Shown here piece by piece: positions 42,741 to 64,000 of a DNA stretch of 64,000 bases. The notes beneath the pieces are model-generated. The model was not told the DNA's origin and did not search any database. It saw only the letters and a list, made by a program, of their open reading frames with translations. The DNA is from Patescibacteria group bacterium (GTDB taxonomy: Bacteria > Patescibacteriota > Microgenomatia > UBA10105 > UBA927). The stretch covers positions 128,596 to 192,595 of the forward strand of contig DATKGN010000013.1 of NCBI GenBank assembly GCA_035510735.1, read 5' to 3'. Position numbers and translations under genes: made by a program. Position 1 is the stretch's first letter; each line of letters begins with the position of its first letter.

Positions 42741-42783
42741 TTGACAAACGCAATTCAGTTGCATATAATAAATGCAACTGAAT
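42741..42783 (+). promoter_or_regulatory. Sigma70-type promoter (TTGACA-N17-TATAAT) overlapped by a perfect 12-bp inverted-repeat Zur/Fur-type operator
   Basis: -35 TTGACA at 42741-46 and -10 TATAAT at 42764-69. ATTCAGTTGCAT (42753-64) and ATGCAACTGAAT (42772-83) form a perfect inverted repeat with a 7-bp AT spacer, directly upstream of the Fur-family gene and znuABC. Confidence 0.65.
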
Positions 42784-42792
42784 AACATTTAT

Positions 42793-43221
42793 ATGACGTT
42801 TCCGCAAAAACACGACTGCACGAATGAACTACATGACGCAGACCTTAAAGTGACCCCTGCGCGCATCGGAATTCTCAGTGCGCTTGAAACAACGAAGCTG
42901 CCTCTCGATATATCAGATCTTGTCCGATACCTGAGTGATCATAAAATACAAGCGGACCGTGTTACCGTATTCCGTAGTATGAATGTCCTGTCGGAAAAAG
43001 GATTGGTTAAACAAATCCAATTTAATGAGGGAAAATTGCGCTATGAATATGCGGCAAAACCTGACCATCATCATTTCGTCTGCGAAAAATGCGGGATGGT
43101 TGAAGATATTTCCCAGTGCAATGTTGAGAAAATAGAAAAAGATTTACAAAAAACGAAAGGACTGCTCATCAGACACCATAGTCTCGAATTTTTCGGACTA
43201 TGTGCGAAGTGTCAGCAATAA
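42793..43221 (+). CDS. zur: Fur family metalloregulator, likely zinc uptake regulator Zur
   Basis: Fur-family DNA-binding helix and HHHFVCEKCG...CAKC metal sites. First gene of the Zn ABC operon. Start chosen at 42793 because the track ATG at 42772 lies inside the operator. Confidence 0.75.
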   Translation: MTFPQKHDCTNELHDADLKVTPARIGILSALETTKLPLDISDLVRYLSDHKIQADRVTVFRSMNVLSEKGLVKQIQFNEGKLRYEYAAKPDHHHFVCEKCGMVEDISQCNVEKIEKDLQKTKGLLIRHHSLEFFGLCAKCQQ

Positions 43222-45751: not shown

Positions 45752-46891
45752 ATGCGAAGAATTTCCCGGCTACTTTTTATACTTGTTTCGGCATTTGTTA
45801 TCTTCTCTAATCTTCCGGTTGTCCATGCGAAGGACACAGCCGGCCAGGCGCCTGAGACGTTCTACAAAGCGGAGGTAGAGGCCATTTTGGATCAGGGAGA
45901 AATCCGCGCCTATGGATTTGTAAATCCTTATCAGAAGGTCAAGGTTAAAATCGAAAACGGTGATATTGAAAATAAAGAGATTGTCATAGTCCAGGGACAG
46001 GATATTCACATCGACCCAAGCCAATTGGTACAGGCAGGACAGACGATCGTCGTTACAAAAATTAAAGGGCCCGACGGTCAGGACTCATATCAGATCGCCG
46101 ATACCTACAGACTCGATAAATTAACGACGATCATTATCATTTTCTTTATTGCAATCATCGTATTGAGCGGATGGCAGGGGTTGGGTTCAATTTTCGGGAT
46201 GATCGTAAGTTTGGTTGTTATTGCAAAATTCGTCATCCCTCAAATATTAGCGGGTCACGATCCCCTATTTATCAGTATCGTCGGTTGTCTGGTTATTATG
46301 TTCATAACGATTTATCTGGCCCACGGATTTTCCAAAAAAACAACCATCGCCCTTATTTCAACATTCTTAACGCTTATTCTGACCGGCGCGCTTTCAACCC
46401 TCTTCGTCCACATGACTTTTTTATCAGGTCTCGGAAGTGATGATGCATACGCATTGCAAATCGGTCCGGAAGCAAAAATAAATTTCCGGGGTTTACTCTT
46501 AGGAGGCATCCTTATAGGGACCTTAGGTGTGCTGGATGACGTAACGACAGGCCTCTCGGCTTCTGTGTTTGAACTCTATAAAGCAAACCCGAAAATAAGC
46601 TTTGGGCAGTTATTAAAATCAGGCCTCGCCATCGGCCGGGAACATATCTCTTCCCTCGTTAACACGTTGGTTTTGGCGTACGCCGGCGCATCGCTTCCGA
46701 TTTTTCTCACACTTGTACTGAATCCGAACAATTATCCGCTCTGGTCGATCCTTAATAGTGAACTCATCGTCGAGGAAATTGTGAGAACCTTGGCAGGAAG
46801 TATCGGACTGGTTGCTGCAGTGCCTTTGACAACGTTCCTCGCGACGATATATATAACCGAGTTTTATTCAAAATCTAAAAAAACGAATTAA
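45752..46891 (+). CDS. YibE/F-like family membrane protein
   Basis: Signal peptide, a soluble N-domain, then about 8 TM helices; architecture typical of YibE/F. Confidence 0.55.
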   Translation: MRRISRLLFILVSAFVIFSNLPVVHAKDTAGQAPETFYKAEVEAILDQGEIRAYGFVNPYQKVKVKIENGDIENKEIVIVQGQDIHIDPSQLVQAGQTIVVTKIKGPDGQDSYQIADTYRLDKLTTIIIIFFIAIIVLSGWQGLGSIFGMIVSLVVIAKFVIPQILAGHDPLFISIVGCLVIMFITIYLAHGFSKKTTIALISTFLTLILTGALSTLFVHMTFLSGLGSDDAYALQIGPEAKINFRGLLLGGILIGTLGVLDDVTTGLSASVFELYKANPKISFGQLLKSGLAIGREHISSLVNTLVLAYAGASLPIFLTLVLNPNNYPLWSILNSELIVEEIVRTLAGSIGLVAAVPLTTFLATIYITEFYSKSKKTN

Positions 46892-60638: not shown

Positions 60639-61337
60639 TTACTTAATTCCGAAGAGCGAGCCGACTCCGGCGGTGAGCGCCATAGCAAATATACCCCAGA
60701 ATGCAACACGAAGAGCCCCTCTCCACATGCTCGCGCCGCCGGTATATGCTGCAACCGCTCCCAACAGTATGAGAAACAAAATTGATGCACCGGAAACGAA
60801 GGGGATTAACAGATGAGCGGGCACAATAAGAGCGATAACGAGAGGCAGTGCTCCACCGACAGAGAAGGTGCTAGCGGATGCGACCGCAGCCTGAACTGGC
60901 TGGGCTTTCACCCGTTCCGAAATGCCGAGTTCATCGCGGGCGTGAGCCGCGAGGGCATCATGACGCATGAGCTGATCAGCGACTTTGCGGGCGAGCGGAA
61001 GGTCAAGGCCGCGCTTGGTGTAGATTGACGCCAGTTCTTCCCGCTCATACGTTTTATTCTCGGCGAGCTCTTTTTTCTCCCGTGCGATATCCGCGTCTTC
61101 GGTATCCGTCTGAGAACTCACCGATACATACTCCCCCGCCGCCATGGACATGGCGCCCGCGATCAGTCCCGCGATTCCGGCAATCACTATATTGCTGTGA
61201 CTGGTATTTGCCGCCGCAACACCGACCATAAGACTCGATGTCGAGACGATGCCGTCATTGGCGCCCAGAACGGCAGCCCGGAGCCATCCGACACGATGAA
61301 TAAAATGCCGTTCGGTAATATATTCCGTATTTTTCAT
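60639..61337 (-). CDS. VIT1/CCC1 family iron/manganese transporter
   Basis: GANDGIVSTSSLMVGV and SMAAGEYVSVSSQ VIT-family motifs. Confidence 0.8.
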   Translation of the reverse strand: MKNTEYITERHFIHRVGWLRAAVLGANDGIVSTSSLMVGVAAANTSHSNIVIAGIAGLIAGAMSMAAGEYVSVSSQTDTEDADIAREKKELAENKTYEREELASIYTKRGLDLPLARKVADQLMRHDALAAHARDELGISERVKAQPVQAAVASASTFSVGGALPLVIALIVPAHLLIPFVSGASILFLILLGAVAAYTGGASMWRGALRVAFWGIFAMALTAGVGSLFGIK

Positions 61338-61486
61338 AAGGTCTTTAGCGCTATTGTACCACCTTTAGTCAGAGTCTTATAAACTCAAAAACGCTTTTTG
61401 GGGTATAATAGAGCTTACTTGCGGGTGCATCATCCGCAAAATCTAATAGTTTATTGCGGGATCGAAATTAAAATAGTGAGCAACGG

Positions 61487-61557
61487 TGCGGGATCGTATA
61501 ATGGTAGTACGCATCCCTCTGGAGGATGTTATCTAGGTTCGAATCCTAGTCCCGCAG
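61487..61557 (+). tRNA. tRNA-Gln (anticodon CTG), no encoded CCA
   Basis: Manual fold: acceptor TGCGGGA/TCCCGCA (U1-A72 and G73, as in bacterial tRNA-Gln), D-stem GTAT/GTAC, anticodon stem CATCC/GGATG with loop CTCTGGA (U33, CUG), T-arm CTAGGTTCGAATCCTAG. Confidence 0.8.
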
Positions 61558-61634
61558 CACTGTTCACTATACAAAACATAGACCAATTCTCCTTTAATGG
61601 ATTACGTTTACTCTTAATAAGAGTAAACCATTTT

Positions 61635-62393
61635 ATGGATTTTGATATTGCAACATATAACGCACAGAAATACCCTTGGTATTCCCCTCATTTTGTTATT
61701 AGAGCAATGAGTTTACTTACAAAGTTGTATGGAGCAAACGTTGAAGATAAGCGTGAATTTCAACTAGCTAGAGAAATGTTTGATTCAGCAGCAGCCTTGT
61801 TAGGAGTGTATGAGCTGCACAATGATAATAAATACTTTTTGCAGCCAAATTTACAAAGCGCGTCACCAGATGTAGTAGCTGCAAAAAATACAGAGATGGT
61901 TGACGCTCCTGTTGTGTTGGAAGAAACAAATTTAGAATTAGTAAGAATGAACGAATATGCGGGTACAGATGACGTTGTAGAGTTTCTAAAAAGAACAAAA
62001 CTTTCTAGTAAAAAAAGCTATGACAATAAAACCCTCATTTTATGCGTCATAAGTAAAAAAATACAAATTAACATACAAAAAATTGCTGATAGTTTGAGAG
62101 AAATTAACCCTAAACCTAAATCGACAATTTATATTTTAGGAATACTTCAAGGAGATAAGGATAGATGGACTATATTTTCTCCTTATCCCGATCTTGTTCC
62201 CCCAGTAATTTATAGTTTGGCAGAAACAATTAAAAAATATCAGCTACCTGGTTCTGTAACTATGCATAGAGGGTCAGTAAAGAAAATAACATATGAAAAA
62301 ATGGATAAACAATTAACAACCACTGTATATGAAGTGTTCAATATTGATGAGTATCAAGTACAGAAATATAAGATCGTACGAGGTACGAGATGA
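61635..62393 (+). CDS. Hypothetical protein (252 aa) in a distinctly AT-rich segment downstream of tRNA-Gln
   Basis: The ORF track gives 61398-62393, but that frame reads through the tRNA. Start taken at MDFDIATYN (61635), just after the palindrome GTTTACTCTTAaTAAGAGTAAAC. Lys/Ile/Asn-rich composition. Confidence 0.5.
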   Translation: MDFDIATYNAQKYPWYSPHFVIRAMSLLTKLYGANVEDKREFQLAREMFDSAAALLGVYELHNDNKYFLQPNLQSASPDVVAAKNTEMVDAPVVLEETNLELVRMNEYAGTDDVVEFLKRTKLSSKKSYDNKTLILCVISKKIQINIQKIADSLREINPKPKSTIYILGILQGDKDRWTIFSPYPDLVPPVIYSLAETIKKYQLPGSVTMHRGSVKKITYEKMDKQLTTTVYEVFNIDEYQVQKYKIVRGTR

Positions 62394-62547
62394 TACTCCA
62401 TAGGAGTTACGTTATAACGATAGTAAAATCCGTGACCGGCACACTCAAGCACTGCTCAGTATATAAACCGTGAAGCGATAACGAAGTAAAGACCCCTGCG
62501 CTTAATGCAGCTCCTGCATATACACTTAAAAATGTGAGAGATGAAGA

Positions 62548-63762
62548 CTACTCGTACCGTAGCGCGTCAATCGGGGAAAGCTGTGCAGCCTTTCGGGCCG
62601 GATACAATCCAAAGATGATTCCAATGAGAGTGGATACACCAACCGCCAGCAATATAGACTTAATCTGAAAGACAAATGGAACGCCAATAATTTTAGATAC
62701 GATAAGTGCAAGCAATTCGCCTAGGACGATTCCGACGACCCCACCAGTAAATGTTAACACTATTGATTCAATGAGAAACTGAATTAATATATCCTTTTGT
62801 TCCGCACCTATTGCCTGAAGTAATCCGATTTCTTTTGTACGTTCCGTAACAGTAACCATCATGATGTTCATAATGCCTATTCCTCCCACAATGAGTGAGA
62901 TACTAGCTATACCGGCGAGCATTGCCGTAAGAGTGCTCGTTACACTGCTGAGTGTAGATTGCGTATCTTTTGACGTACTGATATTAAAATCAGCCGTCCC
63001 GTTCTCTGCTATCTGGTGTCTATCCATTAGAGCACTCTTTATATTTTCGCTAACCGCATCGACTTTATTAGGATCATCTGTGACGACCTGAATTGAATCC
63101 ACGTTATTTTGACCACTGAGGATTTGCATCATGGTGGTAACAGGAATATAGACTGCTTCATCAGGATTTGAAAATCCGCTACTTCCTTTGGATTTTGCAA
63201 CACCGATTACTCGAAAGACTTTTCCGTCTATCGTAATATTTTGATTTAGTGCTTCTGCTGTCGCGTCTTCTCCGAATAAATCAGTTACAACATCGGGACC
63301 TAACACTGCAACCTTTGCCGTGCCTTGCTCATCTTCTTCTTCAAAAAATGACCCTTGATCGATAGTTATTGATTGCACGGTTGGATACCCATAGGATACA
63401 CCCTGCACTGATAGATTTTTATTCTCACCATTACCCACAATTTGGTAGTTTTTTTGCACGACCGCCGAAACTGCTGCAACATTTGGCAAGACGGCCAAAG
63501 CGGATGCGTCATCACGCGTCAGCGTCGTAACATTTCCGCTTTGCACGGGACCACGCTGTTCTGCACCAGGTCTAATGGTAATCAAATTAGATCCAAGTGC
63601 GGAAATAGACGATGTTATTGACGAAGTCGATCCTTGTGCTAGCGCGATGATGAGAATCACTGAAGCAATACCGATAACTATACCAAGCATGGTAAGCAAG
63701 GTCCGAAAAATATTTCCCCGTAAGGCTTGAATAGCGGTAAGAAATAATTCTGAATAATTCAT
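62548..63762 (-). CDS. ABC transporter permease, MacB/FtsX-like
   Basis: N-terminal TM, large periplasmic MacB_PCD-like domain and C-terminal FtsX 3-TM bundle. Confidence 0.85.
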   Translation of the reverse strand: MNYSELFLTAIQALRGNIFRTLLTMLGIVIGIASVILIIALAQGSTSSITSSISALGSNLITIRPGAEQRGPVQSGNVTTLTRDDASALAVLPNVAAVSAVVQKNYQIVGNGENKNLSVQGVSYGYPTVQSITIDQGSFFEEEDEQGTAKVAVLGPDVVTDLFGEDATAEALNQNITIDGKVFRVIGVAKSKGSSGFSNPDEAVYIPVTTMMQILSGQNNVDSIQVVTDDPNKVDAVSENIKSALMDRHQIAENGTADFNISTSKDTQSTLSSVTSTLTAMLAGIASISLIVGGIGIMNIMMVTVTERTKEIGLLQAIGAEQKDILIQFLIESIVLTFTGGVVGIVLGELLALIVSKIIGVPFVFQIKSILLAVGVSTLIGIIFGLYPARKAAQLSPIDALRYE

Positions 63763-64000
63763 GATTCTATAGTGCTCCGTACTTGTTTATTTGATTTATC
63801 AGTCAAGACTAAACCATCTTTAAGCATAATTATTCGCTTGGCATACGCAGCGATGTCCGGTTCGTGCGTTATAACGACAACCGTTTTTCCCTGATCATTC
63901 ATTTTTTGTAAAAAGGACATAACTTCATGAGAAGTCTTACTGTCTAAATTACCCGTTGGTTCATCGGCAAGTATCATCGTAGGGTTCATAACAAGCGCCC
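63759..64000 (-). CDS. ABC transporter ATP-binding protein (MacB-type partner; C-terminal part, the gene continues beyond the window end)
   Basis: ILADEPTGNLDS (Walker B/D-loop) and ITHEP (H-loop). The ORF is open to the window edge. Confidence 0.8.
   Translation of the reverse strand, partial: ALVMNPTMILADEPTGNLDSKTSHEVMSFLQKMNDQGKTVVVITHEPDIAAYAKRIIMLKDGLVLTDKSNKQVRSTIES

Follow-up and report, generated by a model that had tools for sequence, protein, structure and literature searches.

How does a gene of foreign appearance come to lie directly behind a tRNA gene, and what might its product do there? The question is raised by a 64,000-nt stretch of DNA from Patescibacteria (Candidate Phyla Radiation, CPR), here called the window; all coordinates count within it unless another locus is named. 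On its plus strand a protein-coding gene for 252 amino acids (61635-62393, ATG at 61635 to TGA at 62393) starts 76 nt past a tRNA-Gln gene with the anticodon CTG (61487-61558, plus strand). A first-pass annotation of the sequence had described this open reading frame (ORF) as an AT-rich orphan, perhaps acquired horizontally. On balance, and with moderate confidence, we explain it as a mobile single gene for a putative PD-(D/E)xK nuclease that would serve in accessory defence; it occupies a variable spot in the genome.

The identity of the tRNA gene was confirmed by ARAGORN and by Rfam (RF00005, 61.3 bits, E 2e-12), and the AT-rich shift reported to follow it was borne out by calculation. The GC content of the ORF is 33.2%, against a window mean of 43.7% (standard deviation, sd, 3.1% over 759-bp windows). 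A windowed GC profile is non-uniform with its minimum at the ORF: the lowest-GC 759-bp stretch of the window falls within the ORF region, equally low windows amount to 0.14%, and GC stays at 0.29-0.38 across 61500-62400. At third codon positions (GC3) the ORF reaches 24.2%, compared with 43.9±6.2% for the 61 long ORFs of the window, which makes it the lowest of all, 3.2 sd below. Since this shift affects synonymous sites, it points to foreign codon usage, beyond what amino-acid content alone would bring about.

The ORF belongs to a family, which refutes its description as an orphan. A word-indexed search yielded 37 homologues (E 1e-162 to 4e-43, 38-100% identity), and when the representatives of all 50%-identity clusters were searched exhaustively, 98 clusters came up at E≤1e-3. 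The ATG at 61635 coincides with the N-terminus of all close homologues. A profile search returned 51 matches, all of 197-256 amino acids and single-domain, none of them carrying a Pfam domain and none fused to a further domain. An identical protein, annotated merely as hypothetical, is present in a metagenome-assembled genome (MAG) named "Patescibacteria group bacterium". The named hosts are nearly always Patescibacteria (Patescibacteria group, Microgenomates, Saccharibacteria); the exceptions, by label, are one MAG assigned to Gammaproteobacteria and one to Actinomycetota. One contig of the family, L011 (CAZCYO010000001.1), is titled "uncultured Gammaproteobacteria bacterium", has a GC content of about 33% at the locus and carries a member 67% identical to the window's protein; it may be a mislabelled MAG or a case of cross-phylum transfer. 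The product has a pI of 8.65. Its reported length of 252 amino acids stood, while its characterization as Lys/Ile/Asn-rich was overstated, the enrichment in Lys and Ile being mild (K 9.5, L 9.1, V 7.9, I 7.1, N 4.8%).

Comparison with a copy in locus L100, 88% identical in protein, gave a ratio of nonsynonymous to synonymous substitution (dN/dS) of 0.12 at a dS of 0.47, and dN/dS was 0.07-0.15 against more distant copies. The gene is intact, functional and, judged by these values, under purifying selection. The earlier statement that its product has no recognisable motif is borne out by Pfam, PADLOC and PHROGs. Pfam gave no match for the query and none that was consistent over 68 members, PADLOC-DB v2 returned 0 families at E≤10 for the family protein, and the single PHROG match had an E of 0.32. 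An NCBI-style profile search of the family protein found no match, and a PDB sequence-profile search with the family found nothing significant.

The right-hand anchor of the locus is a macB-type ATP-binding cassette (ABC) permease gene on the minus strand (62548-63762; Pfam MacB_PCD and FtsX), which together with 45 nt of conserved 3' flank covers 62503-63762. The three closest relatives available, L097, L098 and L099, were recovered through MacB (89, 84 and 82% identical), and all three retain the operon of response regulator, kinase, membrane fusion protein (MFP), ABC protein and MacB. Nucleotide identity to L097, the closest of them, is 77% over 62503-63998, and similarity stops 45 nt past the macB stop codon, at window position 62503. 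This limit and the differing content beyond macB define a low-GC variable insert of about 944 bp (61559-62502), made up of a 76-nt leader, the ORF and a 109-nt trailer. Beyond macB, L097 carries five unrelated ORFs, among them a recombinase zinc-ribbon fragment and a SHOCT protein, and then a tRNA-Gln(TTG) gene with the relative orientation that tRNA-Gln has in the window. L098 has a tRNA-Ser gene alone, 250 bp away, and L099 a 177-aa gene and a helix-turn-helix gene. No family member is present in this interval in any of the three, so that the gene is absent from the locus in 3/3 of the closest relatives recovered. The tRNA-Gln/macB interval is thus a hypervariable spot, and the insert is an ordinary one-gene variable islet beside a tRNA gene.

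Three further observations concern this interval and its relatives. In L097 (9846-10735) the recombinase zinc-ribbon fragment, of 136 amino acids, and the SHOCT-domain ORF adjoin tRNA-Gln(TTG), an arrangement suggestive of a decayed serine-recombinase element in the corresponding position. The same locus contains two tandem copies of the MFP-ABC-MacB module. In the window, a short inverted repeat (TCGTACGAGGTACGA, 62374-62388) extends across the last codons of the ORF; with its T-rich tail on the minus strand it obtains a terminator-like score, and it could stop transcripts of the macB operon from entering the ORF in antisense.

The contexts of the homologues point to movement of the gene by itself. 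The L100 copy has unrelated flanks and an unrelated downstream gene; similarity begins a few bases before the ATG and ends at the stop codon, with downstream flanks scoring below the shuffled mean. All-against-all BLASTP among 13 distinct contexts revealed no neighbour family common to them, which marks the gene as a true singleton. Candidate partners were rejected accordingly: the downstream genes of 201, 202 and 229 amino acids (in L004, L002 and L101) are unrelated to each other, as are the upstream genes of 305 and 314 amino acids (L001 and L010). A toxin-antitoxin or other two-gene system was discarded because no adjacent partner is conserved across contexts, and no notable small ORF flanks the gene in the window.

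Some of these contexts are mobile or defence-like. In Microgenomates bacterium Gr01-1014_5 (L012 5538-13800, identical with L002 1538-9800), a stretch of about 8 kb of mostly hypothetical genes, including the family member, lies between tRNA-Trp and rpsU-secE-nusG-rplK. It contains a gene for a large serine recombinase of 506 amino acids, which lies opposite in strand to tRNA-Trp and overlaps it with its 3' end; the whole stretch is probably an integrated element. A search for att repeats of this element gave none, which is not unexpected for serine integrases. Elsewhere a family gene lies between an IS630-type and an IS3-type transposase gene, adjoining a Type ISP restriction fragment. In L016 (5767-7469) a tRNA-Ala(TGC) gene is followed by a HEPN gene of the AbiU2 family (E 8.5e-11), a distant family member and a CYTH-domain gene, which by its gene content appears to be a small, defence-like cluster beside a tRNA. 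A further context consists of tRNA-Ser, a weak HEPN match and the family gene. DUF5677 genes are neighbours in two cases; this family is enriched near serine recombinases, and the ORFs for which tests revealed defence did not include it (PMC12632615). Neighbours at the other loci were unmatched by PADLOC save for one weak PDC-S52. A tRNA gene on the same strand lies within 4.5 kb upstream in 4/13 contexts, a proximity that is suggestive, not decisive.

Taken together, the foreign composition at synonymous sites, the absence from relatives L097-L099 and the unrelated contexts, both that of L100 and the 13 without a shared neighbour, support horizontal acquisition of the family gene, as the first-pass annotation had proposed from the sequence. 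Its more specific suggestion of a phage or plasmid remnant found no support: tblastn against 50,697 phage records and against 72,556 plasmids, and IMG/VR searches with four different probes, identified no relative, and the PHROG search was equally empty. Its alternative of a defence singleton may be right; PADLOC gave no match, and the contexts that speak for it are suggestive only. In aquifer Patescibacteria up to 13% of genome length has been attributed to horizontal gene transfer, mostly between Patescibacteria and with defence functions enriched (PMC12455944). The tRNA-Gln locus fits this pattern.

What the product might do was approached through its predicted structure. An AlphaFold2 model from a 68-sequence alignment reached a predicted local distance difference test score (pLDDT) of 94.7 and a predicted template modelling score (pTM) of 0.92. 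It comprises a long helix 1 (residues 40-61), strands at 68-71, 80-88 and 91-105, a helix at 114-121, a strand at 133-139, a helix at 147-156, a strand at 164-170 and a further hairpin. The overall order is α-β-β-β-α-β-α-β, with a core of α-βββ-α-β, and was reproduced in a core model of residues 36-206 that was built separately. P78 and D79 are invariant in 68/68 aligned sequences and E47, E101 and K122 nearly so; all five are invariant in a 44-sequence core alignment, and Q70, K127 and Y129 are also nearly invariant. In the model helix 1 carries E47 and strand 3 carries E101, P78-D79 directly precede strand 2, and K122 closes the helix that follows strand 3. PD-(D/E)xK enzymes place catalytic residues at these positions, namely in helix 1, at the start of strand 2 and in strand 3.

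The recurring weak matches in Foldseek searches were PD-(D/E)xK proteins. NucC was aligned over 236/240 of its residues. PaqCI, compared with the core model, was the best geometric match (query TM-score, TMq, 0.41; prob 0.60; root-mean-square deviation 5.4 Å over 137 columns); trimming to the core had raised its TM-score from 0.27 to 0.41 and left significance unchanged. Other weak matches included MspJI, Hjc, an RNA-splicing endonuclease, SPARDA chains (390-401 residues), herpesvirus UL24, an Mrr-like protein, a phage "restriction endonuclease" and endodeoxyribonuclease I (T7-type endonuclease I). The structural evidence is thematic, not conclusive, and we give a divergent PD-(D/E)xK-type nuclease about an even chance.

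From these elements we propose the following explanation. A low-GC single-gene insert of 0.94 kb occupies the hypervariable spot that separates the tRNA-Gln(CTG) 3' end from the conserved macB efflux operon and its end, and the family would travel as a lone gene between patescibacterial genomes, often landing in mobile or defence-like neighbourhoods. In the predicted fold, E47, D79 and E101 would form the metal site of a metal-dependent nuclease, and the lysine usually found two residues after the Glu would be supplied by K122, where the following helix ends. Such a solitary enzyme would most plausibly act as an accessory defence or abortive-infection (Abi) nuclease, modification-dependent or otherwise conditional. 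A lone nuclease lacking a methyltransferase, an antitoxin or a sensor would have to be conditional, which favours an accessory defence or Abi role over a housekeeping one. A bolder version, which we consider speculative and rather unlikely, would see in these proteins an undescribed family of compact stand-alone nucleases, mostly of Patescibacteria, with an E-PD-ExV signature and a relocated lysine, providing single-gene defence against phages and mobile genetic elements and hopping as ORF-sized units beside tRNA genes.

Several results weigh against the proposed explanation, and most bear on the enzyme. The residue at E101+2 is Val or another hydrophobic one in every member, giving ExV and no (D/E)xK lysine; K122, the sole invariant Lys, comes 21 residues further on. 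Relocated catalytic residues are known in the PD-(D/E)xK superfamily. Foldseek gave no significant match (best E 1.5e-2 in the PDB and 1.7e-3 among viral models) and no fold match at E<1e-3 or TM 0.5, and Argonaute proteins were equally frequent among the weak matches. The profile searches of Pfam, NCBI-style models, PADLOC and the PDB were likewise silent on a nuclease. As to function, the hints of a defence or Abi-type role come from neighbourhoods in a minority of contexts, and other contexts are plain metabolic genes. As to the route of acquisition, the 944-bp interval contains the 252-aa ORF only, without an integrase or recombinase gene, and the window as a whole offers no integrase, att repeat or partner gene. 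The points on the enzyme also speak for a different account of the protein: an accessory protein of Patescibacteria that is no nuclease, has an α/β fold either new or so far unrecognised, and is engaged in binding, regulation or other enzymatic activity, for which the conserved E, D, E and K would then serve. The missing ExK lysine and the absence of any significant structural or profile match to a nuclease agree with this account, as do the top Foldseek rows, in which Argonaute, phi12 P4 and ribosome-factor matches are mixed. It is opposed by the placement of the invariant quartet, which is that of PD-(D/E)xK enzymes from helix 1 through the start of strand 2 and strand 3 to the next helix, and by the restriction-type nucleases that supply the best geometric matches to the core. 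We consider a non-nuclease possible, if somewhat doubtful.

Other accounts concern the origin of the insert. That it is what remains of a prophage, plasmid or integrative element which entered at tRNA-Gln and kept one cargo gene is suggested by the position of the gene directly 3' of the tRNA, by the homologue within the serine-recombinase element at tRNA-Trp, by the recombinase fragment adjoining tRNA-Gln in L097 and by the tRNA genes upstream in 4/13 contexts. The window, however, has neither an integrase nor a repeat of the tRNA 3' end, the phage, plasmid, IMG/VR and PHROG searches contained no homologue, and the L100 copy shares the ORF alone and no flanking element sequence; we therefore hold such a remnant to be unlikely. 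The ORF-sized unit of similarity would also be explained by homing, that is, by a selfish free-standing nuclease gene that copies its own ORF into cleaved sites, and the lone gene with its nuclease-like motif would suit this. Homing predicts one insertion site across genomes, whereas 13/13 contexts differ; at a dS of 0.47 short flanks could have diverged past recognition, and in one species the family is stable in a single context over more than 10 samples. This makes a homing-endonuclease-like gene quite improbable. Least credible of all, and largely refuted, is a vertically inherited lineage gene with a low GC content due to its amino acids or expression level. The gene is intact and under purifying selection, and the family homologues are also somewhat GC-poorer than their surroundings, as vertical inheritance would have it; against this stand a GC3 3.2 sd below that of the window's genes, the absence of the gene from the locus in relatives and homologues without synteny. 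The mobile single gene for a putative nuclease is the explanation that we retain.

Between the tRNA gene and the ORF lies a perfect palindrome of 23 bp, GTTTACTCTTA-A-TAAGAGTAAAC (61606-61628, plus strand), detected by both inverted-repeat and terminator scans 47 nt past the tRNA and 6 nt before the ATG. It had been noted before at 61607-61629, and its existence and place between tRNA and start codon are correct; its true coordinates are lower by one. In the whole window only 2 perfect inverted repeats have a short loop and arms of 10 nt or more, against 0.33 expected from dinucleotide shuffles. The palindrome folds into a 10-bp hairpin (-10.2 kcal/mol, z -4.0), which is followed by CAUUUUAU, and was picked up by the terminator scan with the tail CATTTTAT. 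The stretch from the tRNA to the ORF yielded no sigma-70-like promoter. Since the hairpin starts 47 nt past the tRNA, the simplest reading of the palindrome is a terminator or insulator of the tRNA transcript, and in its 10-bp pairing, energy, tail and distance it resembles the Rho-independent terminators found after tRNA genes. It differs from them in an AT-rich stem with 3 G-C pairs, in a short, interrupted U-tract with 4 consecutive U, and in abutting the next start codon and covering the region of the ribosome-binding site; the AT-rich stem and the short U-tract count against a terminator, the assignment being a consensus match only.

The hairpin could serve as a translational or operator element just as well. 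Its right arm holds AAGAG, a Shine-Dalgarno-like stretch 12-16 nt before the ATG, and in a 102-nt fold the start codon is paired too (-19.7 kcal/mol, z -3.7). With both paired, the structure would dampen translation of a potentially toxic product; in the proposed explanation, the pairing of AAGAG would keep expression of the gene low. Homologues at other loci have no such palindrome upstream, only the same-species contigs L005-L007 carrying it, and the right arm is unconserved in L100, where 22 nt were available. The palindrome may also be an operator, with no adjacent regulator in the window. As a repeated operator it was rejected, since a single extra half-site, at 46491, is consistent with chance and the palindrome is absent from all other loci. 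In integrons, attC sites lie at the 3' end of a cassette and have the core consensus RYYYAAC ... GTTRRRY; this identity was rejected as well, because the palindrome precedes the ORF and has ends, GTTTACT and AGTAAAC, that misfit the core sites. The other long perfect palindrome of the window, at 42753-42783 (12-bp arms, 7-nt loop, -15.4 kcal/mol, z -5.7), separates two ORFs of the same strand. Its right arm begins with the ATG of the ORF at 42772-43221, the layout being that at 61606-61628, with a hairpin abutting a start codon.

The first 10 nt of the tRNA-Gln gene, TGCGGGATCG, had been reported to recur upstream, and exact copies are indeed present at 61455-61464 (plus strand) and at 61487-61496 and nowhere else; the significance of this repeat is weak and close to chance. 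Close 10-mer repeats number 9 in the window against 5.3±3.1 in shuffles, and the alignment does not extend past 10 nt (p about 0.01 against shuffled upstream sequence), which also led us to dismiss the copy as a decayed 5' fragment of a tRNA. As an att-type boundary of the insert it was rejected because it sits 5' of the tRNA, on the wrong side with the AT-rich gene 3' of it, and no tRNA fragment follows the ORF. With no such fragment downstream, and with the 3' end of the tRNA not repeated anywhere in the window, nothing brackets the insert as attL and attR. The 10-nt repeat is probably chance or a small remnant. Apart from the tRNA, a scan of Rfam gave no match. A second hairpin, 48 nt before the tRNA gene at 61419-61439 (plus strand; TTGCGGGTG-CAT-CATCCGCAA, -12.2 kcal/mol, z -3.2), contains the heptamer TTGCGGG that also occurs at 61454-61460 and resembles the acceptor stem of the tRNA (TGCGGG/CCCGCA). 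At the other end of the window, TGACTTCCAC is repeated 35 nt apart (1426-1470) just past a tRNA-Glu gene (1334-1408), the second copy overlapping the ATG of the ORF at 1460-2080; behind tRNA-Glu there is no terminator-like hairpin.

On the 5' side of tRNA-Gln lies a VIT1/CCC1-family gene (60639-61337, minus strand; Pfam VIT1), which has the highest GC content of all genes in the window (55.9%; GC3 56.9% against a mean of 43.9%). Hundreds of unrelated metagenome contigs carry homologues with 60-71% identity to its product. This side of the tRNA shows no synteny with the relatives and none among the metagenome contigs bearing VIT1. VIT1 was dropped as a guide to syntenic relatives for this reason, and MacB homologues served instead. 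Compositional outliers thus stand on both sides of tRNA-Gln, of high GC on the VIT1 side and of low GC on the other, and VIT1 may itself have been acquired horizontally.

The locus as such is a routine horizontally acquired accessory gene, and the remaining interest is in the uncharacterised family. With no annotation, a confidently predicted fold, a nuclease-like quartet of residues, purifying selection and single-gene mobility, the family makes a sensible candidate for a new compact nuclease of the defence or selfish kind in a poorly understood phylum. The genomes of Patescibacteria are tiny, CRISPR is absent from most of them, and these bacteria are thought to depend on restriction-type defences and to exchange genes often with one another (PMC12455944).

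Among known systems, the PD-(D/E)xK nucleases (the nuclease domain of PaqCI, NucC, Hjc, MspJI, UL24) have the α-βββ-α-β order in common with the predicted fold of the family protein, and the acidic residue in helix 1, the PD at the start of strand 2 and the Glu in strand 3 recur in it. It departs from them in PD...ExV in place of ExK and in the lack of any significant sequence, profile or fold match; sensor, DNA-recognition and partner domains are missing, as is a cyclic-nucleotide system in the neighbourhood. NucC is, like the family protein, a single-domain protein of about 240 amino acids. Solitary Type IV-like restriction enzymes of the Mrr/MspJI type and single-gene Abi nucleases stand alone, as the putative nuclease would, without a methyltransferase or partner; enzymes of the Mrr/MspJI type possess a separate modified-base or DNA-binding domain, whereas the family protein is one compact domain without homology to them. 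Compared with tRNA-adjacent genomic islands and defence islets, the insert is small (0.94 kb, one gene) and, without an integrase or a direct repeat of the tRNA end, falls outside the formal, integrase-borne definition. It is like them in its site 3' of a tRNA gene, in its foreign composition and in its presence or absence among relatives, and its homologues likewise stand beside recombinases, transposases and Abi-type genes.

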